A DNA stretch of 64,000 nt, from contig JACNLC010000050.1 in NCBI GenBank assembly GCA_014381725.1, positions 10,125 through 74,124 on the forward strand. Reading direction: 5' to 3'. Numbering within the stretch: position 1 is the first letter of the stretch; every line of letters begins with the position of its first letter. Source of the stretch: Fidelibacterota bacterium (lineage in GTDB: Bacteria; Fidelibacterota; Marinisomatia; SCGC-AAA003-L08; JACNLC01). Below the pieces are notes generated by a model. It did no database searches. It was given only the letters and a program-made list of their open reading frames with translations, and was not told where the DNA came from. The position numbers and the translations under genes were made by a program. Positions 11,001 through 34,800 of this stretch are shown piece by piece.

Positions 11001-12368
11001 GGATATTCTGTGAGTCAAATGGATAGTTCAATAATAGCTTTATCGCCACTTCTTGATCCACAGGACACATTAATTTTTGATGGTTATGATGGTATTAATT
11101 ATAAAGCATCAAAGATAATGCTAAGAAGTGGCTACAGCGAACCAATGAGCTCATTGTTTGAAGTAGTAGATTTGGAGATTGACCAAATAAACGGAAAAGG
11201 CTTCATTCCCGTAACTACAAATAGTATTACGATAAATGATACTACATTTAACTTTACATTCAAAGATACAACCGATTACAAATGGACAGGAGTTCAAAAT
11301 ATGGCAATTGTGGTTGCAAAGGTTGATGACGAACAACCACCGGTAACTTATGATTTTGTGCTAACAAATATACAAACACCTCCAAATTATAGTGATTTTT
11401 ATGTTTTCCAGAATGTAGGCGCTAGAAATTATCTTGATCTTTATGTTGCGAGTGAGCGAACAATCTTTGATGAATTTGGTGTAGAGGGGCCACAGATTGA
11501 AGTGCAGAGTTTGTATGATACAACAATTGTTTTACTCGAACCTTCGTCTTTGTACTCAAATGATTACATTTTATACCACAATTTTTGGGAATTGGGGAAT
11601 TGGGATTCTTATTCGTTGATATATTCAGGTACTGACCAACATGGGATTGCAATAGACTCGGATACAATAGATGTTTCGTTAATATATTCTCAAGAGGTGT
11701 TAGAACGAGGATTTTATTCTCCATCTCAAAACTTTTGGATTGAATTTTCTGAAGAAATAAATATTAATACTAGATTAATCAGTTTCGAAACCGGAGCCAA
11801 CAATCACCTTATCAGTCAATTGCAAAATGATGATTTGGCAGTTATAAGCTCCACTGTTGCATATTTTGGACCAAGTGAGTTACAAACTGAAACACCGTTT
11901 AGATTAACTGCAAATCTGCCCGAAGAATATGATAATGTTCAACTTTATTCGTGCCAAAATGGGGACTGGATAAATTTAGGGGGGCATATCAACAACGGTG
12001 TGATTACGATATCAACAAATCGTTTTGGATATTTTGCAATTGTAGCAGGAGAAGAACATTATCCTGTAGATACTTCCTCATTGCTGCCAGAAAAATATAT
12101 TCTTCAGCAAAATTATCCAAATCCGTTTAATGCCACAACTCAGATAAACTATGGCATACCGCATGACTCTCATGTCAATCTATCAATTTATGATTTAAAG
12201 GGAAGACAAATAGCAGAATTAGTCAATGCGAAGCAACCAGCATCATGGTATTCTGTAATATGGGACGGTGCAAATCACAATGGCCAAACTTTATCATCCG
12301 GAGTATATTTCATAACTCTGAAAACAAACCAATCAATCAAAACTCAAAAAATGGTATTACTAAAATGA
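8025..12368 (+). CDS. Large secreted protein with M30-like metallopeptidase-fold segment (degenerate HEYTK) and T9SS type A sorting domain
   Basis: HGYFS..NGGDIIYLD..AISHEYTKLL..WLIEGLA; C-terminal LQQNYPNPFN..WDG..SSGVYF..KMVLLK. Confidence 0.7.
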   Translation: MKKMYFITLILISFCFTIEMEDCAYDLNSNTISITFDNLINTQDVLLGLMAFSDGTIELPLTGGEIVTEDEFSQSVEISLIYGEIIDSRGDYNYWGNTGDLAESVENMDLENLILIVQPPAFVSSDNQIIGYQEISVETIYSEDIYPVMESVYYDCNINMLTVEFDRIVQFDQLAEDRASEDDGPGNQQMDGNPTEDENDNGVLDMEQNIDVFKIGFSNDYGVMNLEGFDNILQVEDDTLISIYLTNLDAKKLESSLLINDTSTNANVSAGAFRDTNYNSNIMSSVAVTTIPDSILFVANSSSYNLSDNEMQIFFTDCRDVTYTDPTPIWSKFSFSDGENSISLSGIESVSTSGSTLKLRELLFSDQAAIENMISSNYEQGESSFYLSIEEYSVYDVNGNGNVEVVNIPIEIIEDFESPVLDEIFYDALENQITLNWSPDKINYYKSNKLSTTPELYDVSGIRVYSGTEYADTLEITTAHISRNSTKKETYLDLTLEEAGWIEFHSSDSLIMEIDAYTLYSSGAGNNSGNFTINLGISYNPDVVAPSVESAILNEESDTLHLIFDKNISLNTINLETLNVIINSETITLTTSVENMLSEFSDELYLSINETQMQSVAEAIPNNNIIEMDLVIPDSTIKSLDGVWKQEQTIDLSFGKNFWNKSFRAFAETPEEIFCSFKYLSDNLMIFVEDSLWNIDFDSSDIDSIVSFFSETKETLESYHGSFNDIDENGVLIFVLYDISDEYGKGKNDTNASLFTHGYFSLNAEESDEDYANGGDIIYLDINPQIVWDGEDEKDFNETMFNAISHEYTKLLITQNENIEEEWLIEGLAYLEQLRTSGDVKFFGNNTNPSAVAGNQLTYLSNSLKTRYDQWNIYLFLNYLFEKYTNTDGWDIINNISLNDTIQGLGSIDTALVELGFEKDVKDIFLDYAIASFLDMEHQEHYYDAAYAMDAVDLYGAPDGKNAGVMKFNDISPPPYSFSGLNPWSYSFYLIQGYSVSQMDSSIIALSPLLDPQDTLIFDGYDGINYKASKIMLRSGYSEPMSSLFEVVDLEIDQINGKGFIPVTTNSITINDTTFNFTFKDTTDYKWTGVQNMAIVVAKVDDEQPPVTYDFVLTNIQTPPNYSDFYVFQNVGARNYLDLYVASERTIFDEFGVEGPQIEVQSLYDTTIVLLEPSSLYSNDYILYHNFWELGNWDSYSLIYSGTDQHGIAIDSDTIDVSLIYSQEVLERGFYSPSQNFWIEFSEEININTRLISFETGANNHLISQLQNDDLAVISSTVAYFGPSELQTETPFRLTANLPEEYDNVQLYSCQNGDWINLGGHINNGVITISTNRFGYFAIVAGEEHYPVDTSSLLPEKYILQQNYPNPFNATTQINYGIPHDSHVNLSIYDLKGRQIAELVNAKQPASWYSVIWDGANHNGQTLSSGVYFITLKTNQSIKTQKMVLLK

Positions 12369-13324
12369 GAAAATATTTTATACTGTTCATACTGTCGGCA
12401 ATAATTCAATTCGGGTGTAATCCTTATAGTGATGATAATTATTTATACAATCCTCCGGATACCTATGTAAATCTGATGGTCGAGGGATGGGGTGCGTATG
12501 TTACAGGAGATTTTGATATTGCAATTGAAGCGTTTCAATCAGCAGCTGATAGGGACGCTACTAAACCAGAACCATATCTAGGATTGGGTTGGAGCTATGC
12601 AAGAACACCAAATTTAGAATCAGCAAAAGCAAATTTTTCTAAAACGCTTGCGTTTTCAGATTTTGATGATGAATTAGGCGATACTTTGCTTGCTGAAACT
12701 TATGCAGGGATGGCTTATGTGTTTATGGCAGAAGAAAATTGTGAATCAGCAATTGAATACAGTCAAAATGTAATAGGATTAAATCCTACATTTCAAATGA
12801 GATATGATGTATCAATAAACATTGATCGTCTTGAATTAATGGAATTAATTTGTAATTTCAACCTCCATAGTATTTCTGAAGCGTATTTGATGGCAAAAGA
12901 TATGGGAGGCGAATTCACAACTGTTTTCCAACAGATAAATGGTCAAGCTACCGTTGAACATATCGATAACACTGAATTAACAGGAGAACATAAAGGAATT
13001 CTTCAAGAGGTATTTGAAGATGTGAATGAAGACTGCGTTTACGACTCGTTAGAAACATTTACTGATGCTAACAATAACAATCTTTGGGACATAGTGAACG
13101 AAAGTTATTTTTTGATTTATGTAGAATCAGTACTGCTGTGTAGTGAAACACCTGATTCAGTTTATTCAGTACTGTCAATAGATGAAGGAACCAATACATT
13201 TTATTTTCAGGAAAACCCGATTATCCCGAACGAAGATACTATAATAGCAAATTATTACTATGTAGAAGATTACGGTTTGTTTCTGAATGAACTTTTAGCG
13301 ATTTTATCATCGTTAAACAACTAA
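12365..13324 (+). CDS. TPR-containing lipoprotein
   Basis: Likely start ATG at 12365 (ATGA overlap with upstream stop); lipobox IQFGC; TPR EGWGAY..AFQSA..YLGLGWSY. Confidence 0.7.
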   Translation: MRKYFILFILSAIIQFGCNPYSDDNYLYNPPDTYVNLMVEGWGAYVTGDFDIAIEAFQSAADRDATKPEPYLGLGWSYARTPNLESAKANFSKTLAFSDFDDELGDTLLAETYAGMAYVFMAEENCESAIEYSQNVIGLNPTFQMRYDVSINIDRLELMELICNFNLHSISEAYLMAKDMGGEFTTVFQQINGQATVEHIDNTELTGEHKGILQEVFEDVNEDCVYDSLETFTDANNNNLWDIVNESYFLIYVESVLLCSETPDSVYSVLSIDEGTNTFYFQENPIIPNEDTIIANYYYVEDYGLFLNELLAILSSLNN

Positions 13325-13382
13325 TTTTAGGTTGATAAACCCTAAAAAACAGAAAAATAGTATAAAAAGAAAGGAAAGTACT

Positions 13383-16300
13383 ATGAAGAAGAAGTTAACA
13401 GTAATGTTAGTTTTGTGCTTAACAGCATCTTTTATTTTTGCAAAGATGCCAGTTGACCAGAAAACTACAAAACTAACAACAAACAAGACCCAGTTTGTAA
13501 TACCGGGTAAGAACCTGATTGCTTCCCAGTCAATGATGGATAATGTTATAAAAAATCAAATGGCACGGCAGGGAAATGATGATTCTGATGTTTTACCTTT
13601 ACATCGCCATGCTGCAAGTAAGATTGCAACACGGGACTGTGAAGGTTGCTGGGATTTATCTCATGTGGATGAGACGGCAGAATGGTATCTTGGAAGTGGT
13701 GCCGCTAGCGATACAATGGCAGTAGCATTTACAGCCGCCGCACCATGTATTGTTCAGGAAGTATATTGTCAATGGTTTGACGGTGGGAATATTACTGCAT
13801 TTGCGTCAATGGTGAGTGATATTGCGAACGAAAATACCGGCAATACCGGAGCTTCAACAGGTTGGCCTCGCGGAACGGCGCCATGGTCGCCAATTGGGCA
13901 AATGATGACTAATCCAACTCCAAATACTGCTGTTGGAGATAATAGCTATGAATTATTGGATATTGGCGGAACATTCCAAGTAGGAGACGAAAGTGATCTT
14001 GCAAACACGCCTGCATTCATGATAATCATTATTAAAGGTGCAGAAACTCCTCATCCATTAGCATCTGATGTTGCAGACAACACTTACCTATGGTTTGGTG
14101 GTCCTTGGACCGACCCTGATGGTGATATTACAACCCCAGATGGTGACTGGGGTGATGGATACGCATGGGGATCATACCAGAGTTCAGGAAGTATGGACAG
14201 CGGATTAATCGACAATATGGTTTTGGTTAAAGTAACATATCCTTGGGGTGCTCCAATTGCATCGAGTGCCAGTCAGTTACCAAACACTTATGCTACCACA
14301 AACACATTAGAAGTATTAGTTGATTTATTTGATGATGTTGACGATGCAAGTGGGTATGCAATCAATGACGATGATATTATCAACTTTATTTATTCCGTTG
14401 ATGGCGTGGAAACAACCCTAACACTTGCGGATGCTTTACCGGTTGATGTTGGTGCAGAAGGCAATGGTGTTTATGCGTTCAACATTGATTATACTGGGAC
14501 AGCAGGAACTGTAATTGAATATTGGTTAGAATTAACTGATAACGATGGTTTGTATTCAGAAACTGCTCCATTAAAGTTTGAAGTTAAAGCTCCATTAAAT
14601 ACAGATGCAGATCTTCTAATTATCAACGACCGTGCTGGTAGTTACAATGTTGACCTTTATGAAACCGTTGTTGCAGATATGGGAATTATTTTTGAAACTT
14701 GGAATGTTACAGACAATAATGGTATAGATGCTTCTGTAATTAATTTCGGTTGGTCATCCATTGTTGTTTATGGATGGGGAACTTCAACAGTTCCAATTAT
14801 TGCCGAAGAAGAAGACCCAGGATATGGTGCTTTCTTAGATGCTGGCGGACATTTATTGTTAGTTGACCAAGACTGGTTTTATGGTCATGCACTAGATGTA
14901 TCACCTGTTTTTGAAGCTGGTGATTTTGCTTATGACTATTTTGGTTTAGCTGGTGGAGAAAATGACCCTATGGATGAAGAAGGACTCAATAGTATAGGCG
15001 ATACTTTAGTAACAAGTCTAATAGATGGGTTATTTGAAGAAGAAGAAATTGCCTTGGCTCATGACATATATGGAACTTCCAATTGGGCTGATTATCTCTA
15101 TGAAGGTGATGGAGTTGGTATATTTGCTGGATTTGATTCTGATGAAATTGTTGGTATTCAAAATGGAAATGCAACATATTTATCATTCATGGCGGATGCA
15201 GCGGTTGACACATTAGAAACCGGTGAATTAACTTACGATCAGTTTGGAACCTTATTGAACTATATTATAACTGACTTTGGAGTAACTTCACCTCCTGTTG
15301 CTTGGTTTGTTGATGGGCCAACAGGGCATATTTTCACCCAGGAAGACCAAACTGTTACATTTGGTGCTGAAGATCCGGACGGTGATGCTTTTACGGTTGA
15401 ATTATCATATATTGTGAATGACGGCGAAACGACAGTTGTCTCCACTATAGATAATGGAGATGGCTCATTTACGGGCACAATTCCAGGACAAGGAAGCGGT
15501 GCTGTTGTTGATTATTTTGCTGTTACGACAGATGACACAGGAGCATCTTATACAACCGAAGTTTATAACTATGATGTATATTCTCCATCTTCAAATGTCT
15601 TGTTTGTGTTAAACAATGAAATGGACCCAGCGGGATATCCTGGATTGTATTACTTCTATAATTCAGCAACTGGTGGATTGTATTTAATGCCAGATTTTTG
15701 GGTTGGTGCTGTTGTGCCTGAGTTACTTGACTTTTATGATACAGTATTTGAAATTGCAACTACAAACACATACGATAGTTTTTACGATCACTATGATGTT
15801 GTCCATGCTTGGTTGCAAGATGGAAATAAAAACTATGTATTAGCAGGCGATGAATTGTTCTACATGCTAGGTGTTGACGGGGCAACAGAAGCAGGAACAT
15901 TCTTTAACGATTTAGGAATTGCTGAAGCCCACAGTGATTTATCCTATCCAGATGAATATTCAGGAACTTCACCCTTATATGCAGTTGAGAATGATCTGAT
16001 ATCTGGTGATTTATTTGCTGGAATTAATGACCTTGGAGATGGTAGCGAACTAATGTATGACCCTCTCTATGAAATCGGATTAGACTACAACTGGATTGAT
16101 GGAATGGTTGCTACGGAAGATGCAACCCCAACAATTTATCATACAGCTACTGATTTGGCTGTTGGAGTTTATAAAGAATGGACAAATGGCAACAAAACAA
16201 TGTATCTTGGTTTTGATCCATTATCATTAAATTCAGCACCAACTTATGATTGGTGGGGCGCAGGTGATGCTGGTACTTTGAAAAAAGCTCTTGATTGGTT

Positions 16301-24752: not shown

Positions 24753-26222
24753 ATGGCAAATATAAAAAGTGATGGGACAATATTAGAAACTCTAACCTCT
24801 CTGTCTAAACAACGAGGTTTTATTTTTCAGAGCAGTGAGGTTTATGGTGGTTTGGGTTCAACCTGGGATTATGGCCCGTTGGGTGTAGAGTTAAAACGAA
24901 ATGTTAAAAATTTCTGGTGGCAGGAAATGGTAACTTCACGAGAAAATATTGTTGGTATGGATGCCGCCATTTTAATGCACCCAAAAGTTTGGGAAGCAAG
25001 CGGTCATATTGACAATTTTCACGACCCGTTAGTGGACAACAAAGAATCCAAAAAACGATATAGAATGGATCACTTATTAGAAGAACAACCTGAAGAAGTC
25101 ATCGAGAAATTATTGGTTAAATTTTATGGCGATACAATCCCGAAATTTGCTGATGATGAAGATAAATTTCAATCAATTGTTGGTAAATTGAACGAAAACC
25201 AGTCCAATAGTGCTGAAGCTCTAGTAAATGTTGGTCTCATTGACCCGCATACTAAAAAAGTTGGTGATTGGACGAATCTCCGCCAGTTTAATCTTATGTT
25301 CAAAACACATATGGGACCGACTGATGATTCAGCATCTGTTGTGTATCTCCGACCTGAAACTGCACAGGGAATATTTGTTAATTTTCCGAACGTTCAATCC
25401 ACTTCTCGTCAGAAACTTCCTTTTGGAATTGCACAACTTGGGAAAGCGTTCAGGAATGAAATCACCACAGGAAATTTTATTTTCCGCACTCGTGAATTTG
25501 AACAGATGGAAATGGAATTTTTCTGTCGCTCAAATGAAACTGGGAAATGGTTAGAATATTGGTCTAATGAACGATTAAATTGGTTTAAATCTTTGGGTAT
25601 CAACGAGAGTAAATTACGGCTTCGACCACATGGTAGCGACGAATTAGCTCATTATTCTACAGCATGTTATGATGTGGAATATAAATTTGATTTTGGATGG
25701 TCAGAGTTAGAAGGAATCGCCGACAGGGGAACTTTCGATTTAGACCAACACGCAAAATTCAGCGGGAAGAAAATGACATATTTTGACCAACCAAATAATG
25801 AGAATATCATTCCAGCTGTTGTTGAAACTTCTGCTGGAGTTGACAGAGCTGTTCTTACTATTTTAGCAGATGCTTTTACAGAAGAAGAGGTAAACGGCGA
25901 AAAAAGAACTGTCCTAAAATTTTCACCAAAAGTTGCACCAACTACGGTGGCTGTTTTCCCATTGATGAATAAAGGAGGGCAACCGGAAAAAGCACAAACA
26001 ATTGTTGACGAGTTGCGAAAAGAATTTAGCGCATTTTATGATGCTGGTGGTTCAATCGGTCGAAGATATCGCAGGCAAGATGAAGCAGGAACACCATTTG
26101 GAATTACAGTTGACCACGACACTATGGATGATGATACCGTTACTCTCCGCGATAGAGATACAATGCAACAAGTCCGCGTTGGGATTGATAAAGTTAGAGA
26201 TGCCGTGAGAGATAGAATGTAA
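24753..26222 (+). CDS. glyQS: Glycine-tRNA ligase (alpha2 type)
   Basis: DYGPLG, FNLMFKT, YLRPETAQG, FRNEI, ELEGIADR, SIGRRYRRQDEAGTP. Confidence 0.97.
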   Translation: MANIKSDGTILETLTSLSKQRGFIFQSSEVYGGLGSTWDYGPLGVELKRNVKNFWWQEMVTSRENIVGMDAAILMHPKVWEASGHIDNFHDPLVDNKESKKRYRMDHLLEEQPEEVIEKLLVKFYGDTIPKFADDEDKFQSIVGKLNENQSNSAEALVNVGLIDPHTKKVGDWTNLRQFNLMFKTHMGPTDDSASVVYLRPETAQGIFVNFPNVQSTSRQKLPFGIAQLGKAFRNEITTGNFIFRTREFEQMEMEFFCRSNETGKWLEYWSNERLNWFKSLGINESKLRLRPHGSDELAHYSTACYDVEYKFDFGWSELEGIADRGTFDLDQHAKFSGKKMTYFDQPNNENIIPAVVETSAGVDRAVLTILADAFTEEEVNGEKRTVLKFSPKVAPTTVAVFPLMNKGGQPEKAQTIVDELRKEFSAFYDAGGSIGRRYRRQDEAGTPFGITVDHDTMDDDTVTLRDRDTMQQVRVGIDKVRDAVRDRM

Positions 26223-26281
26223 GTTAGTTTCTCGCCAAATTTCATTGTTTTATTACTGACATTTATATAAAATCACTATTT

Positions 26282-27832
26282 TCAGAAACTATTGAAAGTT
26301 TTATTACCAGCAACTACAGTCATTAATACTTCTGTTTTCAAAATTTCATTTTCTGGACAAGTTAGAATATTGTTGGATAAAATCGTAAAATCAGCGTCAT
26401 ATCCAAGTTTAATTTGTCCTCTTCGATGTTCAGCAAATTCTCCATAAGATGCCCAAGTAGTTAACATTTTGAGAGCATTGCTTCGCGAGATACATTCCTC
26501 CGGATGCCAACCATTTTCTGGGAAACCATTAGAAGTTTTTCGAGTAACCGCTGCGTAAAACTCGAAAATCGGGTTCCCTTCTTCAATCGGGCAATCAGAC
26601 CCACCCGGTATTTGGCACCCAATATCAATTAAAGTTTTCAGTCGTGATATTTGATGCGTGCGATGCGTGCCAATTCGCTTATCTAACCAATTCATATCAG
26701 AAATAAAGTGCGATGGTTGTATCGATGGTAAAACGCCTAATTTTGCAAATCGACAGATATCATCGTCTGCAATCATTTCAGAATGTTCAATTCTCCACCT
26801 ATGATTTTTGGTATTGTTCAGTGTGCTTTCATAGATATTCAAAGTTTCACGAACAGCTCTATCTCCAATGGCGTGAGTGTTTAGCTGAAATCCTGCATCT
26901 CTACATTTTTTGGCTAAATTCTCAAATTCTTGTTTTTCGTATAATAACAAACCTCTATTATCTTGATCATCAGAATACGGCTCCAATAAAGCGGCTCCGC
27001 GACTTCCAAGTGCTCCATCTCCCAATGTTTTTACAGAACGAATCGTGTAATAATCAGATTCAAAAAAACCTTGCTGAAAATATTCATTTAGTAAATCAGT
27101 ATATTTGTCTCCAAGCATTCCGTAACAACGAATCGGAAACTCAGGATTATTGGATATTTTTTTCATTGCTATAACCGTTTTAGCACATTGCCAAGCATCG
27201 TGAACACCAGTTATCCCTCGATTTGGCATTTCGTTAACTGCAGACAACAGCCATCGCTCTATGTCATTTAGTGATGGTTTGGGTAAAATATCAGTTATGA
27301 TATCCATTGCATTATCAATGAGGATGCAATTATTTACAACCCGACCACCATCGGGAATAATTGAAGAATTTAGTCCAGAAATTTCTTGTGCTTTGTAATT
27401 AATCCACGCTGAATGTCCATCAACACGAGTTAAATACACCGGATGATTTGGAGTGCAATCATCTAAAATTTGAGCTGAGGGAAATCCCGGATTATCCCAC
27501 TTTGATTGGTCCCAGCCGAATCCGAAAATCCATTTATTCTCTGGTAATTTTCGTGTTTGCTCTATAACTTTTTCTGCGATTTGTTGTGGAGATGTAAAAC
27601 CACGAAGATTGAGATATTCTAATTGTTTACCAATGCCTGATAAATGTAAATGTGCATCGACAAATCCAGGGAGGAGTGTAGCACCATCAAGATTGATATT
27701 TTTTGCATTGGCTTGAGTGTTGTCAATAGAAATAATTTTCCCATCACAAATAGTAACCGATTTAGCGAATGGATAATCAACATTCAAAGTGATAACATTA
27801 CCGTTAATAAAATTTATTGTATCGTGAACCAT
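26282..27832 (-). CDS. Amidohydrolase family 3 (YtcJ-like)
   Basis: PGFVDAHLH, DGHSAW, DGALGSRGA, HAIGD, RIEH, GSDCP; start taken at MVHDT. Confidence 0.9.
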   Translation of the reverse strand: MVHDTINFINGNVITLNVDYPFAKSVTICDGKIISIDNTQANAKNINLDGATLLPGFVDAHLHLSGIGKQLEYLNLRGFTSPQQIAEKVIEQTRKLPENKWIFGFGWDQSKWDNPGFPSAQILDDCTPNHPVYLTRVDGHSAWINYKAQEISGLNSSIIPDGGRVVNNCILIDNAMDIITDILPKPSLNDIERWLLSAVNEMPNRGITGVHDAWQCAKTVIAMKKISNNPEFPIRCYGMLGDKYTDLLNEYFQQGFFESDYYTIRSVKTLGDGALGSRGAALLEPYSDDQDNRGLLLYEKQEFENLAKKCRDAGFQLNTHAIGDRAVRETLNIYESTLNNTKNHRWRIEHSEMIADDDICRFAKLGVLPSIQPSHFISDMNWLDKRIGTHRTHQISRLKTLIDIGCQIPGGSDCPIEEGNPIFEFYAAVTRKTSNGFPENGWHPEECISRSNALKMLTTWASYGEFAEHRRGQIKLGYDADFTILSNNILTCPENEILKTEVLMTVVAGNKTFNSF

Positions 27833-27946
27833 TACGAAATTTAGAGAACACTTTATAAACAAACCACGAATTAACACAAAAATATTGTAAAACTAGAATC
27901 TTTGCTATTTAGCGAAGAGAAATTTATGCGCTGTTTAAAATATTTT

Positions 27947-28489
27947 TTAGTTTCTTATTTGCCATAATATAAAATCAATTTTCTTTATATCAGAAATTCC
28001 AGATTCTGGATATTCATTCTCAAAGATTTCTAGCATTTGAATTCCTTCTGAGGATATTGTCATATTCTTATACCAGCAAAAAATTCGATTATATAATTTT
28101 ACTGTGTCTTCGATTCTTGTTTTACTATATTGAGCAGGTTTTTTTAGTTTTAAATTTTCTAGTACGAATACATCCCAGATTGGCATTGATGTATTAATTG
28201 TTGCTAATAGTTTACTTGAAAATGAAGCTTCAATTCTACCAAGCTTTTCATTTAGAGTTATTAATATTTCATTAAATTCTAAAGGTTTTGTTTTGCATTC
28301 TTCCAATAATGAATAATATGTCTGATAGAAATCTTTTGGTCGCTGTCTAATGCGATAAAACCCATTGAATTTGCGTTGAAATTCTATGTCTTGAGAAACA
28401 TCAACTTCATAGAAGTTATCCATAATAGTCTTGTATTTCTTTAGCCCTGGTTCAATTTTATGAATTGCTTTTTTTGTGCTTTCTATCAT
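27947..28489 (-). CDS. Hypothetical cassette-like protein, possible HhH DNA-glycosylase-like fold
   Basis: Start MIEST after GAGGAG; FQRKFNGFY, SFSSKLL..PIWD, KKIDFILW motifs. Confidence 0.55.
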   Translation of the reverse strand: MIESTKKAIHKIEPGLKKYKTIMDNFYEVDVSQDIEFQRKFNGFYRIRQRPKDFYQTYYSLLEECKTKPLEFNEILITLNEKLGRIEASFSSKLLATINTSMPIWDVFVLENLKLKKPAQYSKTRIEDTVKLYNRIFCWYKNMTISSEGIQMLEIFENEYPESGISDIKKIDFILWQIRN

Positions 28490-28528
28490 CTTCGTCTCCT
28501 CTTGTTTTGTCTTTAAATTATTAATGGC

Positions 28529-28660
28529 ATATAACGGTTGGAATATGGCTTTGTGGCGGTTTTTGAAACACAAATCTTTCAATTTACACCGATTTTAATT
28601 TATTGTTAAATCGCTCATATTTAGCACTTCACCAGCCATAAACTATATACATTGTAGTGG
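28529..28660 (-). repeat. attC-like recombination site (~132 bp)
   Basis: Minus strand R''-like CCACTAC 13 nt after the upstream stop, R'-like GTTATAT just before the next gene's RBS; arms ATATGGCTTTGTGGC / GCCATAAACTATAT pair with one extrahelical base. Confidence 0.6.
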
Positions 28661-28673
28661 TTAGTATTTTTTC

Positions 28674-29645
28674 TTAAAACACATTGTCTAAATTATCTGC
28701 ATTCAATATTTTTTCTTTTGAAGAGTATCTTGGACTCTGAGGTGCTTTACCCTTTCCTTTTCCAAGAGGAACTTTTTTGATTTTTTCAGCAGGTTCTGTA
28801 AAATGTAAAATATATTTATGTGTATTTTCCCATTGTTCAACTGATTTAATCTCTGCAAGGTGTGTTATTGCAGAAATCGGAGCAACTTGATAAGCAGCAA
28901 TGTACTTAATTTTAGGAATCATAAATGAATTTAATCTGATAGCATACCAACAATTTTCATTAATAAAAGTATCTTTAAAACCATCTTCTCTTGCCGGGAT
29001 TACAATTGTATCAATATCAGAAAAATCAATTTTTTCTATATCTTCACTAATTTCATTAAGGAAAGGTTCAAATTTATAGAGTATTTTCCCATTCTGATTT
29101 TTAAATTGTTTTAAGGTTATTACTTCTACTGGAAATTTAAATCTACTTATAAGGACAGTTTCTAATTCTTCTCCAAGTTCATCAATAATCAAAAGGGCAT
29201 TAAAAGAATCTTTTTTATGTATGATTGATTCCAACAAATAATCAACATTTTCAAAACCGTTCTTATATGCAAACCTTTCACATTTATTCCATTCTTCCTG
29301 TCTTTTATGAAGCATCTCCTTTATGATATTCTTGACTTTAACTTTTGAAGTCTCAAATGACAATGAAAACTCTAAGATTTGAACAGCAATATGCTTTAAA
29401 TGTTGATGACTTGCAAGGTCATTTTCAACAACAAATATTTTCGGGTCTTGATTATTTGTTAAATCTATTAAATATCCATCTGGTAAATTATTTGTTCTCC
29501 CCTTTTTCCCAATCTTCTTTTTGTCATCGAGGTAAATTCGTGTTGAACCAAATAAAGTTCCTTTTACTACATTAACTGCATCTTCAAGTTCTGATTCCTT
29601 TTCATAAGGAATTTCTAAAAATTTATCATCGTTATTCCATAGCAT
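28674..29645 (-). CDS. Putative PD-(D/E)xK-like nuclease fused to a C-terminal PUA/EVE-like domain
   Basis: E.ELE..LFG..LPDGYLIDL..VVENDLASH; C-terminal DTIVIPAREDGF..WYAIR..YIAAYQVAPISAITH. Confidence 0.55.
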   Translation of the reverse strand: MLWNNDDKFLEIPYEKESELEDAVNVVKGTLFGSTRIYLDDKKKIGKKGRTNNLPDGYLIDLTNNQDPKIFVVENDLASHQHLKHIAVQILEFSLSFETSKVKVKNIIKEMLHKRQEEWNKCERFAYKNGFENVDYLLESIIHKKDSFNALLIIDELGEELETVLISRFKFPVEVITLKQFKNQNGKILYKFEPFLNEISEDIEKIDFSDIDTIVIPAREDGFKDTFINENCWYAIRLNSFMIPKIKYIAAYQVAPISAITHLAEIKSVEQWENTHKYILHFTEPAEKIKKVPLGKGKGKAPQSPRYSSKEKILNADNLDNVF

Positions 29646-29864
29646 AATTTATCTCGTTTTAATATTTGCCACAACAGACATATAGCATTTATTTTTTCTT
29701 ATGTATATATTGTCATACCCCGCCTTGTAGTTACTTATGAGTTTGTTGTTTAATTTGTAAAACTCATCAAAGTTGCTTTGTTTAAGTTTAATACTATTAT
29801 TTTTGTGATTCCAAATGTTTTTTAAAGTTTGCTCGTCAAATTTACACACATGGTACCCACTTTC

Positions 29865-29893
29865 GTGCAAATTAAAACCAAAGAGTATAAAAT
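29865..29893 (+). promoter_or_regulatory. Sigma70-like promoter facing CRISPR repeat A
   Basis: GTGCAA-N17-TAAAAT, hexamers and spacing identical in unit B. Confidence 0.5.
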
Positions 29894-29939
29894 AATTGTT
29901 ATCTATAATCGTAACTGTCCTCAGACAAGCATTTTAAAA

Positions 29940-29975
29940 GTCTAAGACCGATATAAAATTTCTACTGTTGTAGAT
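29940..29975 (+). CRISPR. Solitary type V-A (Cas12a) CRISPR repeat A
   Basis: 36 nt GTCTAAGACCGATATAAAATTTCTACTGTTGTAGAT with the canonical 19-nt Cas12a handle (stem TCTAC/GTAGA, loop TGTT) and GTCTAAGA 5' end. Confidence 0.9.
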
Positions 29976-30054
29976 AATCTCCTTTTTATTTTGCAAATCC
30001 AAAACTTTTATCCCTTACAAAATTATTCTATTCATACTTTTCGTTAACAATTAA

Positions 30055-31092
30055 TCATTTATCCTTAAAAATTCTTTTAATTTCTTTATCAAAATCGCTT
30101 TCAAAAAGTTTGTCTTGTACTATGCGGTATTTTTCAAACTCGCTTTCGGCCTTGTCTTTGGCTATTTCTGCTGATATACTTCCTGCACTTTTAAGCACAG
30201 CTCTATCATCATATTCTAAAAACAAATCAAGTCGTTTTGCCCAATCTTGCATTGTCATTGGAATGTTACGTTTTGCTCGTACTTCTGCTAAATCCAAATA
30301 AGCATTTACAATTCGTCCTAATTCTTCCAGTTCATCTTTTGAAAGATAATTTTTAGCAATAGAAACATCTGTTTTTAGGATTTTCCCTTCAGGGCTATTT
30401 TTCCAAGATGATAAACCCATTTTATCTTTCGTACTATCGGCTCTTTTGTATATTAATTCAGCGGCTGTATGTTTGTGTACACCATAATGCAGTTTATTTT
30501 GCACTTTTGCAAAAAACTCACGAGTAGTATGGGCATCTTTGTTATAATCAAAGCTGGTAGCATAAATATCTGTTACTTTTTGATAAAACTTACGCTCACT
30601 TAATCTTATCTCTCTTATTTCAGCGAGTAGCTCTTCAAAATAATTTTCGTTCAGGTAAGTACCATTTTCCAAGCGTTTTTTATCCAGTACAAAACCTTTT
30701 ATTGCAAACTCTCGCAACACTTTTGTAGCCCATTGCCTGAATTGTGTGGCTCGAATAGAATTAACTCTGTACCCAACCGAAATGATAGCATCAAGATTAT
30801 AAAATGCTACAGTTCGTTTTACATTTCTGTTACCTTCTTTTTGAACTATTGGGAATTTCCCAATAGTTGATATTTCATCTAACTCGTTATTTTTGTAAAT
30901 ATTTTTTAGATGTTCGTTTATAGTGCTAATATCAACTTCAAAAAGTTCTGCAATAAGTTTTTGAGTTAGCCAAATAGTTTCATCTTCATAACGAGCTTCA
31001 ATGCTATTTTCACCCTCCTGAGAAGTAAATATCAAAAATTCGGCTGTGCTATTGCGGATTAACTGCTGATCTTTTTTTGATTTATCTGGCAT
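30055..31092 (-). CDS. rhuM: Virulence RhuM family protein
   Basis: ETIWLTQK..AELF, YNLDAIISVGYRVNS.RATQFRQWAT, EIREIRLSERKFYQK; start MPDKS. Confidence 0.9.
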   Translation of the reverse strand: MPDKSKKDQQLIRNSTAEFLIFTSQEGENSIEARYEDETIWLTQKLIAELFEVDISTINEHLKNIYKNNELDEISTIGKFPIVQKEGNRNVKRTVAFYNLDAIISVGYRVNSIRATQFRQWATKVLREFAIKGFVLDKKRLENGTYLNENYFEELLAEIREIRLSERKFYQKVTDIYATSFDYNKDAHTTREFFAKVQNKLHYGVHKHTAAELIYKRADSTKDKMGLSSWKNSPEGKILKTDVSIAKNYLSKDELEELGRIVNAYLDLAEVRAKRNIPMTMQDWAKRLDLFLEYDDRAVLKSAGSISAEIAKDKAESEFEKYRIVQDKLFESDFDKEIKRIFKDK

Positions 31093-31093
31093 A

Positions 31094-31288
31094 TTATTTC
31101 CTCTTTTTTCGGGTTTTCTTTTCTTTGGCAAACAAAGCACCTTGTTCTTTTTCTTCTGCCATCATTTTTTCGTAGAATTTAAACAAATACTCCAATCGCT
31201 CTTCATCGCTATTAAATTGTGTGCTTCGATAACATTTTTCAATGATTATATCGTTTTGGCGATGTGCTTCACGCAGACCTTCAGGCAT
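31094..31288 (-). pseudogene. C-terminal remnant of an MmeI-like (type IIL) restriction-modification enzyme
   Basis: MPEGLREAH..ND..IEKCYR...F.SDEERLEYLF..YE resembles the MmeI/YeeA C-terminal tail; the rest of the gene is absent. Confidence 0.7.
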
Positions 31289-31610
31289 TTTAAGGTCGGA
31301 TTTATTTGACTTTCAATATTCATAATGTATTATTTAGCTCATAAAAAGACTCTTTTTAGCTCAAATGAATCAATTATTGAGCGACATTCTCTACGCTAAT
31401 GAGCTGTAATATCTGTATATACAACATATAGCATTTATTTTTTCTTATGTATAAATTGTCATACCCCGTCTTGTAGTTACTTATGAGTTTTTTGTTCAAC
31501 TTGTAAAACTCATCAAAGTTGCTTTGTTTAAGTTTAACACTATTATTTTTGTGATTCCAAATGTTTTTTAAGGTTTGCCAGTCAAATTTACACACATGGC
31601 ATCCACTTTC

Positions 31611-31639
31611 GTGCAAATTAAAACAAAAGAGTATAAAAT
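31611..31639 (+). promoter_or_regulatory. Sigma70-like promoter facing CRISPR repeat B
   Basis: GTGCAA-N17-TAAAAT. Confidence 0.5.
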
Positions 31640-31686
31640 AATTATTATCTATAATCGTAACTGTCCACAGGAAAGCATTTTTAAAA

Positions 31687-31722
31687 GTCTAAGACTGAAA
31701 TGAAATTTCTACTGTTGTAGAT
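31687..31722 (+). CRISPR. Solitary type V-A (Cas12a) CRISPR repeat B
   Basis: 36 nt GTCTAAGACTGAAATGAAATTTCTACTGTTGTAGAT; 3 differences from repeat A, all outside the 3' handle. Confidence 0.9.
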
Positions 31723-31829
31723 TGTAACAGTTTGTAACAGTTCCCGTATTTCGTTGGATTTTACAAGATTGTTAGTTAACTTCGAAGTTGTATCTATGTA
31801 TATAAATTAAGCTTTAAAAGGAGAATGTT

Positions 31830-34800
31830 ATGTTATTCATAAAATCATCACTAAACCGCTTAGTAACTATTGTTTCTATTATTTTTATGATGTCTTTTGC
31901 TTCTACGCAAGATTGGATAGAGCTTTCAATAGATGTCAATCCTGATAATCCCACAATAAACGACGAAGTTACAATTACAATTAGCGGATTGACTCCGTCT
32001 AATTTAGTCGAAGCAAATTCAACTTTTGCTATAGATGGTAATCATATATTCATTTTGACTAATGTTTACATCGGGAATTATGATATTGTTGAAGAGTTTG
32101 AAGTCAGTAATGAAATTGGGAATCTGTCATTAGGAGAATTTCAAATTATGGTTACTGCAGATTATTATCAATATGACCCTAACGGAAACGCTGAACCAAT
32201 ATTCACAATTACAGGGGAAGAGCATTTTCAAGTTATTGACCCTGAGCCACTAACAGGGGTTTTTGGCAATGTGTGGGCGACAAATGATTGGGGAATTGAA
32301 ATGCCAGTTCCTGGCGCTACTATTGAAGCGTTGTTGGAAAATAGTGAAACTGACCCCGTATTCTTTACAACAACAAACGAAAACGGTTACTACGAATTGC
32401 AACTCGAACCGGGGTTTTATACGGTTACTTGCTCTAAAGAAGGATTAATTCCTCAATCTGAAGGCATTGAAATTGGTAATGCTCCAGCTCAGTTAGATTT
32501 TATGCTTGAGCATTCTTACAACACTCATTGGATTTCTGGAACAGTTTTTGGGTTGGGAGAAAATGATCCTGATAATCCAAATGAGCCATTTCCTCTTCCT
32601 GGAGCATTAGTAGAATTATTGGGATTACTAAATGGTGAATGGGCATATATTTGGGAAACGGAAACAAATGAAATTGGATATTACGAAGTTCCAATAATGG
32701 AATTTCCTGCGATTTATGATGGGTTGGCACTTAGATCTTCTACAGAAGGATATTATCCTCAGTTACAAGAAATTATACATGATGATACTGAGTTTCCAGT
32801 TATTATGGATTTTTACCTCGAACCAATTAGTGATTTTGAAGCATATCTGTTAGGACATGTTTATTCAGCATCAGACGATGCAAGTAATATGTTTCCAATT
32901 GGCGAAGCACATGTAGAAATATTTGATAATAATTCATCGGATCTTTACGCTGATACTTTCACAGATGAAACAGGATATTATGAATTTGGTGAAATTGCTA
33001 GTTCGGCAACTTGGATTAGAGTTAGTGCAATTGGTTATGTAACTCAAGAAATGGAAATACCTCAAATTGATTGCAATACAGGACGATGTTGGCCAATTAC
33101 GATGGATTTTTATCTTGAGCAAAATGAAGAAACCATTGTTTTCTTGCACGGTTTGGTTGGGACTTATAGTGAAAACGGTGAGATGATTCCAATTGAGGGT
33201 GCTTATATCGCTGTGCCGGAAGAAGCGGGGAATTATTTTCATACAACGACCGATACCGATGGTTTTTACGAAATGGAATTCCCGTGGATGTGGAACGGTC
33301 CAATCACAATTATTTGCGAAGCAGATGGATATTATACTCAATCTGTAACAGTTTTCCCTGAAGATAATTCTCTCGAAATCGAACAGAATTTTATTTTAGA
33401 ACCGTATCAAGAACCGGGGGAGGGTGTTTTAGCAGGATTCGTAACAGCACAAATTTCTCCAATGGGGCCGGAATTCCCAGTAGTTGGTGCAATAATGGGT
33501 GCAACCCCAACCTGGGGACCTGAGCCGTGGCTTGAAACATCAACTGATGAAAATGGTTACTACGAGATAGAACTTTGGGCAAACCAAGCCCCTTGGCATG
33601 TATTTTGCACAACAGAATATGGCAGCCAAGAAGAGTTTGCTGTAATTCAGCCAAATGAAGTTACGGAATTGAATTTTCACTTCAATGCGTGGGAACAGGA
33701 ATTTCCACCACCGTTCGATTTAACTGCAACATTAATGGACGATGAAGCGGCTGTTTATCTTCATTGGCAATATGAATATGATTTCCCAGGCAGTGAATTG
33801 ATGCACTTTAATGTTTATGCAAATTTAGGTGAAGATTCTGACATCCCTTGGCTATTTATAGGCACTGCAGAAGAAACAAATTTTGTACATTATCTAATGA
33901 CACCAGGAGAAAATATAACCGGTGAAATTTGCTATAAAGTTACAGCTGTTGAACTTGACACTAATCTAGAAACAGAACCAAGCAACATCGCTTGTGTAAC
34001 TCTAGATCCACCTGAAAATAGTGTTTTATATGGACATGTAACCGGTGGCTCTTGTTGGGAGTGTGATGATTGGCACGATTTGGCTGGTGCAACTATAACA
34101 GTATTTGCTGAAAATAGTGATATTGTTTTTGGTGTAGCAACAGACGAAGAAGGAAATTATGAACTTGAATTGCCTGCTGGTTACTATGTTGTAACAGCAG
34201 AACATCCTGAGTTTCCATCACAGACTCATACAATTCACATTGAACCAAATACAGAAAACGAACTTAATTTCATTCTGTTGTTAGAGAATGGATTTAGTCA
34301 GCTGTTCGGAAATGTAATTTGGCAAACTCCTAACGGTAATCAACCCATAGCTGATGCACATATCATTGCGTATCCCGATAGCGTTAACTCTGGATTTGAA
34401 GCATTTAGTAACGAAAATGGACATTATGCTATGGAAGTAACTGCAAATACTCATTATTTTGTGGTTTGCTCTTTTTCTACTGCTGAAATGGAATGGTCCC
34501 AAACTCAAGAGATTTTTGTGGGATATGAGCCATCCGAGCTTAACTTTATCTTTGGTGAAGAGCCACCAATGGAAGCAAGTATATTCGGATTTGTTGGAAT
34601 TGCCGCACCAAACGGAGATGTAGAGCCTGTATCTGGAGCTCAAATAATCGCAACTTGTTCAGAAAGTGGTGAAATATACGAAGCAACTACAGATGAAAAC
34701 GGCCATTATGAAATGCTCGTTTTCCCGAATAGTTTATATGTTGTTTCGTGTCAATTAGAAGGAGTTACTCAATCTCAAGAAGTTTTCGTTCATGAAGCAC

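Follow-up and report, generated by a model that had tools for sequence, protein, structure and literature searches.

The 64,000-nt stretch of Fidelibacterota DNA analysed here (hereafter the window) contains, between two housekeeping genes, an inserted island in which a gene for a 323-residue protein is followed by an attC-type recombination site and abuts a 305-bp composite of CRISPR and insertion sequence (IS) remnants; a second copy of the composite closes the island on the right. We call the two copies units A and B. The explanation that we favour, and hold slightly likelier to be right than wrong, is that a lone integron cassette without an integrase came to sit next to debris of CRISPR and IS origin, and that this debris was duplicated at a later time. 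A first-pass annotation, made from the letters alone, had read the unit as bifunctional, with an attI-like site capturing whole defence genes on its left and a CRISPR leader and repeat facing right. Its attC site and cassette boundary, and the recombinase it suggested looking for elsewhere in the genome, were borne out, but the bifunctional unit of attI site and CRISPR leader was not. Positions of units, genes and the attC site are in window numbering; the window's own contig is C15 of this genome (G000), a draft assembly of 88 contigs that is 98% complete.

The attC-type site belongs with a set of relatives in the same genome. An nhmmer search found five similar elements of ~132 nt, two of them 850 nt apart on contig C74, all with xxxxAAC as 5' end and CCGTTA as 3' end; RNAalifold folds the five family members into a common hairpin of 25 pairs, and compensatory changes occur in 14 of these. 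A covariance model (R3) trained on five copies from elsewhere in the genome, without the window copy, matched the 133-nt window site over its full length at 75.5 bits (E 1.5e-17; the E-values of our three covariance models, R1 to R3, are rough), its only significant match in the window. R3 has eight matches in this genome, five of which are the training copies, and matches in 17/74 genomes of the order, including 7/8 other genomes of the family, so that the further copies which the first-pass annotation had proposed looking for were found in both genome and lineage. Metagenome contigs carry a paralog of the core of the element in another context. Judged from its sequence, the site truly belongs to an attC family, here called class II, that is structured and spread across the lineage.

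The position of the site relative to its neighbours is that of an integron cassette. It is co-oriented with, and 3' of, the promoterless 323-aa gene, its CCACTAC lying 13 nt past the stop codon, and the next gene, for a protein of 183 aa, follows directly after the G|TT. The same arrangement recurs at locus L084, in a Flavobacteriaceae metagenome-assembled genome (MAG), where R3 has a match of 25.9 bits (E 2.4e-4) at positions 374-508, on the 3' side of the orthologous gene; both ends of the window element are present in that 3' flank and its centre is not. The short 5' sequence of the 323-aa gene (~23 nt), the hairpin running from CCACTAC to GTTATAT, the ribosome-binding site and the second gene are all in the sequence as first described. 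In integrons, the R'' box of a cassette complements the first bases of that cassette, the preceding R'. Here R'' CCACTAC is complementary at 6/7 positions to GTTGTGG, against a predicted form of GT(A/T)GTGG; this heptamer stands at the left edge of unit A, 23 nt before the start of the 323-aa open reading frame (ORF). An adjacent pair of sites on C74, taken as a control, shows the same relation at 7/7 positions (R' GTTATGG of C74a against R'' CCATAAC of the next attC, C74b), in line with the complementarity that the first-pass annotation had pointed out. With 233 occurrences in 4.35 million genome positions, GTTGTGG is expected 0.0016 times per 30 nt, and a looser form, which keeps GTT and allows no more than one mismatch among the four bases after it, 0.024 times. 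The 323-aa gene and the attC site thus read as one integron-type cassette running from 29674 to 28535.

This cassette is real but ordinary, an element of known type that stands alone without an integrase; its setting we take to be what IntegronFinder would term a CALIN (cluster of attC sites lacking integron-integrases) or a lone attC. It resembles textbook cassettes in its promoterless gene, in the co-oriented imperfect palindrome of ~132 nt that has an R'' box on one side and GTT on the other, in the next gene starting directly after G|TT, in the complementarity of R'' to the cassette start and in its many related sites in genome and lineage. It differs from them in that the island has one detectable attC, that its R'' ends in TAC where the family has AAC, and that the site belongs to a lineage-specific 132-nt family missed by models of the genome's other attC class. 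That other class (class I) is well represented: model R2, built from eight long class I sites, has at least 18 matches in the genome, eight of them training copies. Class I sites lie on C16, C85, C87, C31, C9, C66, C74 and at C15:602-705, outside the window; several stand in rows on short contigs, which implies a sizeable cassette pool split over contig ends.

The nearest candidate integrase also sets the island apart from a complete integron. Matches to the integron integrase profile TIGR02249 were absent from C15, all of them falling on C1, C70, C86, C9, C73, C77 and C55, and no protein of the genome reached the cut-off of 265 bits. The best match, at 214.7 bits and so below that cut-off and without profile positions 179-239, is a short XerA/IntI-like tyrosine recombinase of 279 aa on C1; the IntI-specific stretch is missing from it, and against NF040815 ('tyrosine recombinase/integron integrase', cut-off 220) it scores 220.6 bits. 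At C1:85-2142 (L051/L052) this recombinase has the same orientation as a 297-aa gene outside any known family and as a class II attC at C1:85-275, at the start of the contig, and the locus is therefore a candidate 'short-integrase' integron. The IntI-type recombinase that had been sought elsewhere in the genome is accordingly represented by this candidate and its neighbouring cassette.

The product of the 323-aa gene has 2275 homologs. Among the best 120, mostly from Bacteroidota, identity is 77-93% and the length nearly always 323 aa; the 77-93% holds across Bacteroidota and Marinimicrobia. The gene was present in 1/351 sampled genomes of the family of the Flavobacteriaceae MAG, a scan of genome contigs found one locus, without its 5' end, and no copy was seen in the viral contigs scanned. 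It is a highly mobile gene that behaves as a travelling cassette. By tblastn, the C-terminal 110 residues of the protein recur in GIY-YIG nuclease proteins on plasmids, and because this domain is common to such nucleases we regard the gene as a candidate defence gene. The AlphaFold model of the protein is poor (mean predicted local distance difference test score, pLDDT, 62.3). One homolog is named 'Piwi domain-containing' by one source, and a protein-atlas search gave a weak lead to NucS_C (score 0.88). The 183-aa protein has 211 homologs with no common Pfam family.

Comparison with a genome of the same genus (G008) delimits the island. The amidohydrolase gene and the gene for a 1680-aa cargo protein of the type IX secretion system (T9SS), which flank the island in the window, adjoin directly in G008; homology between the two genomes stops near 27883-27895 and restarts exactly at 31723, the first base past the repeat of unit B. 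Since the flanking genes adjoin in G008 and homology breaks on either side, the ~3.8 kb are an insertion. From left to right they hold the 183-aa gene, the 323-aa gene, unit A, a gene of the RhuM family, a fragment of an MmeI-type gene and unit B (Table 1). The MmeI-type fragment covers positions 37-79 of 83 in the PF20467 profile and positions 866-911 of 912 in the PADLOC profile REase_MTase_IIG. We found no virus or plasmid genes in the island, and an Rfam search of 26000-33000 returned nothing relevant. A continuation of IS-like sequence to the right of repeat B was considered and ruled out, the DNA there being native by comparison with G008. In marine metagenome runs from several studies the island recurs nearly unchanged: of the words sampled from it, half or more are present in 14/22 listed runs, some of which runs may be the source sample. 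A metagenome scan round the amidohydrolase gene recovered relatives of at most 65% identity only. In the contigs of four sequencing runs we saw no joint formed by leaving out either the cassette or the RhuM segment.

Table 1. Features of the inserted island in window coordinates
Feature	Position	Strand	Remarks
Inserted island, ~3.8 kb	27896..31722		between amidohydrolase gene and 1680-aa T9SS cargo gene
183-aa gene	27947..28498	-	starts after attC GTTATAT; own GGAG ribosome-binding site
attC-type site, 'class II' family, ~132 nt	28529..28661	-	R'' CCACTAC (28660-28654), R' GTTATAT (28535-28529)
323-aa cassette gene	28674..29645	-	no Pfam, NCBIfam or PADLOC family
GTTGTGG, R'-type core, left edge of unit A	29669..29675	-	putative G|TT 5' boundary of 323-aa cassette
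Tail present in units A and B only	29676..29703	+	
Dispersed element, ~130 nt, sub-part 1 of unit A	29704..29832	+	
IS-end remnant	29833..29935	+	minus strand: last codons of DDE transposase and IS terminus
Solitary type V-A (Cas12a) CRISPR repeat, unit A	29940..29975	+	
RhuM-family gene	30055..31092	-	Pfam PF13310, E 1.5e-111; PADLOC candidate defence family PDC-S05, E 2e-156
MmeI-type (type IIG) restriction-modification gene, 64-codon C-terminal fragment	31094..31288	-	
Unit B	31419..31722	+	composite as in A; left GTTGTAT, right solitary repeat 31687-31722 abutting native DNA

Units A and B are direct repeats of 93-94% identity (29678-29939 against 31424-31685, and 29932-29975 against 31679-31722). 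Each consists of a solitary type V-A repeat, 4 nt for which no source was found, a 103-nt IS end, the dispersed element of ~130 nt and a short tail. At the right edge of both, homology stops exactly at the last base of the 36-nt repeat. At the left edge, read on the minus strand, ungapped homology stops 2 nt before GTTGTGG in A (29675-29669) and inside GTTGTAT in B (31425-31419), so that the coincidence of the homology breaks with GTT cores, already noted in the first pass, is in the sequence; if a 4-nt indel is allowed, ACAAC is common to both left edges. What A and B have to themselves is no more than the 30-odd nt that lead up to the GTT. The dispersed element has five further copies in the genome (C51, C32, C5, C39 and C13) and occurs in G008 and G082 as well, and all nine aligned copies diverge directly past ...GGATATGACA. 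Two of them (C51:67946-68150, L005; C32:26241-26430, L006) have attC-like hairpins behind them, with GTTGTGC or GTTATTA as their ends; the hairpin behind the C51 copy folds at z -4.67, with 0/300 shuffles as good, and the dispersed element may itself be cassette-borne. Copies of the IS end lie on C84, C53, C28, C55, C47 and C43, several of them at contig ends; the transposase is conserved in other genera, with protein-level matches reaching G079 and G026, and scores 24.3 bits against rve_3, just below the cut-off of 26.5. As a whole the composite was found in 0/306 other genomes of the class and in no further copy in this genome, and the joint between IS and repeat gave 0 metagenome hits.

A sceptical account of these edges would have the GTT there by coincidence, the units duplicated by homologous or illegitimate recombination alone and the cassette left nearby when a longer array decayed. 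GTT is a common triplet (0.13 expected per 7 nt), the A and B edges differ by a 4-nt indel and the unit ends are without attC structure, all of which such an account would accommodate. It does less well with the full heptamer GTTGTGG, which is rare and complements the R'' of this very cassette, and with the complementarity rule holding in the C74 control pair. We consider coincidence unlikely, though it deserves to be taken seriously.

The CRISPR part of the unit is a genuine Cas12a-type repeat. It is identical at 36/36 positions to that of an array linked to cas12a, cas4, cas1 and cas2 in G055, a genome of the same order, and the whole genome studied here holds two copies of this repeat only, one in each unit. 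No degenerate second repeat lies behind either (shuffle p at least 0.3), and when the sequence after repeat A was read as a spacer it had 0 exact matches in viral contigs. Identity of the 270 nt upstream of the repeat as a leader was ruled out: these are debris of the IS and the dispersed element, unlike the G055 leader. No Cas12a was found in the genome with the TIGR04330 profile, and tblastn with the V-A Cas proteins of three relatives returned only a Cas1 on C22, 29-34% identical. Cas12a is infrequent in the class, with 5/301 sampled genomes positive and 0/8 among the other genomes of the family. Given the lack of Cas12a in the genome, we take the solitary repeats to be, most likely, without a CRISPR function in it. 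C22, the contig of the Cas1 homolog, also holds a different CRISPR array of at least 15 repeats (GTCTTAATCCACTCGGTATG...), and array and Cas1 homolog (C22:469-1083 and 12292-13594) are the genome's own, non-V-A system. Metagenome contigs of runs X13 and X14 carry the V-A repeat of the units with spacers of 27-28 nt in between, and live arrays therefore coexist with this population. An orphaned or decayed array left by IS insertion and deletion would likewise present a perfect repeat beside a truncated IS end with the matching cas genes gone; unlike such arrays, the island has no spacer-repeat periodicity, and its remnant was duplicated together with non-CRISPR flanks.

Solitary repeats can nevertheless be functional. 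Mobile elements with solitary repeat units downstream of promoters have been published, as have three V-A RNA anti-CRISPRs (Racrs) active against MbCas12a (PMC10651486). By analogy, the repeats of the island would be transcribed from promoters as Racr-type decoys or crRNA (CRISPR RNA)-like RNAs that blunt the V-A systems of recipients from a mobile island. Such a role would agree with the perfect identity to the repeat of a live V-A locus in the same order, with true arrays of the same repeat in the same marine samples, with two conserved copies on an inserted island free of cas genes, with a TATAAT box ~40 nt upstream of each repeat and with the published precedents, V-A Racrs included (PMC10651486). 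The likeness to those Racrs extends to the single repeat, unlinked to cas genes, on horizontally acquired DNA. However, a promoter scan was at background (26 sites against 21.3 +/- 4.3 expected), the units had no cover in RNA run X19 (small, contigs only) and the island has no virus or plasmid genes. The island further differs from the Racrs in having no virus or plasmid context, in the IS debris upstream of the repeat and in the doubling of the unit as part of a 305-bp duplication. A decayed IS end upstream of the repeat fits accident better than design, and we rate functional repeats as quite improbable.

The bifunctional unit of the first-pass annotation would have a working leader and first repeat on its right side and an attI-like capture site on its left. 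Both units do end at GTTGT exactly where foreign DNA starts, one of these joints is the validated start of a cassette, and an inverted pair, CTACAAC with GTTGTGG or GTTGTAT, encloses the unit and matches at 6 to 7 of 7 positions when G-T pairs are counted. On the CRISPR side the supposed leader is IS and repeat debris unlike a true V-A leader, each unit has a single repeat, and neither Cas12a nor a V-A adaptation gene was found; the proposed leader-repeat role is not supported. On the integron side, no integrase gene lies on the contig, and no recombinase gene adjoins the units. attI sites have no general model. The unit edges gave no match with any of the three attC models, and the terminal hairpin of the units folds no better than shuffles (z 0.08). 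Likeness of the edge to the candidate attI on C1, striking by eye, proved to be at chance (957/2000 and 242/2000 shuffles as high) and was dropped. Capture of a whole gene to the left of unit B was not seen either: 128 nt of non-coding DNA are followed there by the 64-codon MmeI-type gene fragment and RhuM. The absence of the composite from other genomes of the class and from the metagenome hits counts against the module too, and we regard it as highly improbable. In the literature searched we found no description of integron-CRISPR coupling, and such coupling is not supported here.

Returning to the lone cassette beside debris, we infer an order of events and a mode of duplication along the following lines. 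A type V-A repeat from a lost or foreign array would have been stranded beside a decaying rve-type IS. The cassette would then have recombined by its G|TT at a GTT on the edge of this scar, as the coincidence of junction and edge suggests, with the promoterless 183-aa gene lying directly behind it. Later, a DNA circle that bore RhuM, the MmeI fragment and a unit copy already diverged may have integrated by a single crossover, which would leave direct repeats; that crossover could have been either homologous or integrase-mediated at the GTT. Campbell-type scars of single crossovers likewise show direct repeats of a few hundred bases round inserted DNA, but the repeats here are 93% alike and end in a CRISPR repeat end and an integron-type GTT core.

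Several observations weigh against this explanation. One is that the CRISPR repeat runs to its very last base at two independent junctions, of unit A with the RhuM flank and of unit B with native DNA, and duplication by a single crossover leaves this exactness unexplained. The divergence of ~7% between A and B implies that the event is old or that the incoming copy had already diverged, and no strain lacking one of the units was seen in the contigs of the four runs. Models R1, R2 and R3 found no attC behind the 183-aa gene or behind RhuM, so the island is not a regular array, and the unit edge lacks the conserved ACCG that precedes G|TT in the attC family, so it is not a class II attC end. The window attC itself goes unrecognised by the class I models: R1 (four short sites) had nothing at the site and its best score in the region, elsewhere, was 10.4 bits (E 0.36), and R2 gave 7.9 bits there (E 0.5), the top of the region; class I box position weight matrices were not significant, 486 genome positions scoring as high. 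Of the inverse core boxes of attC sites, R'' (RYYYAAC, 5') and R' (GTTRRRY, 3'), the window site has R' as GTTATAT. In the alignment to its own family, CCACTAC falls in the R'' column (CCATAAC, CACAAC) with TAC replacing AAC, from which the site is real, though possibly impaired. Its DNA fold (-12.5 kcal/mol, z -1.37, 24/200 shuffles as good; z -1.72, 17/300 shuffles as good, in a second test) does not rise above shuffles, and with the TAC in R'' this means that the site may be inactive. Fold energy is, however, uninformative as a test of such hairpins, since a true family member on C44 scores only z -0.93. Finally, the genome being a draft, a Cas12a gene could lie on unassembled DNA.

The exact junctions at the 3' end of the repeat invite two further explanations. 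The island could be two related mobile elements in tandem, E1 (27896-29975) and E2 (29976-31722), whose right terminus is the CRISPR repeat, comparable to the guide-RNA ends of TnpB/IS605-type elements. Besides the junctions, which in B are with native DNA as defined by G008, AATCT begins both segments and the right end is conserved while the cargo differs. Against tandem elements, genes for a transposase, TnpB or Cas12 are absent from both segments, no Cas12a being found in the genome either; target-site duplications are absent, the conserved end is a patchwork of unrelated debris, and no other composite copy exists in the genome or in the 306 other class genomes. We think this very unlikely.

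Alternatively, the lineage's integron-type recombinase might use the repeat end itself, which would amount to direct cross-talk of integron recombination with CRISPR repeats. The unit is bounded by CTACAAC, the reverse complement of the repeat end GTTGTAG, and by GTTGTRK, which resemble the R boxes of the attC family; if the repeat end mimics an R box, the unit would be a composite attachment site capturing cassettes and other DNA. Were that true, it would explain why the homology of the units runs exactly from box to box, but we give it only a very slim chance.

We thus keep to a lone cassette beside duplicated debris, and its interest lies chiefly on the integron side. A lineage-wide attC family of ~132 nt in marine Marinimicrobia is documented with a usable covariance model, and both this family and the short C1 recombinase are noteworthy. 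The 323-aa gene is identified as a widely travelled cassette gene, 77-93% identical across phyla, at a time when integron cassettes with defence genes are an active topic (10.1101/2024.07.02.601719; PMC12614218). The island further shows that arrays are not the only landing place of integron cassettes, which can also end up next to debris of CRISPRs and ISs, and that such neighbourhoods may resemble designed modules. Should the minority reading of the unit be true after all, integron recombination and CRISPR repeats would be linked for the first time.

Two observations concern the native DNA round the island. Direct TGTAACA repeats at 31723-31745, upstream of the 1680-aa T9SS cargo gene, are conserved in both genomes of the genus (locus L059 in G008) and are probably a regulator-binding site. 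Across 12113-47317 of the window, a 42-nt motif (YPNPFNP...) occurs at four places and shows where several large secreted proteins have their T9SS C-terminal sorting domains.

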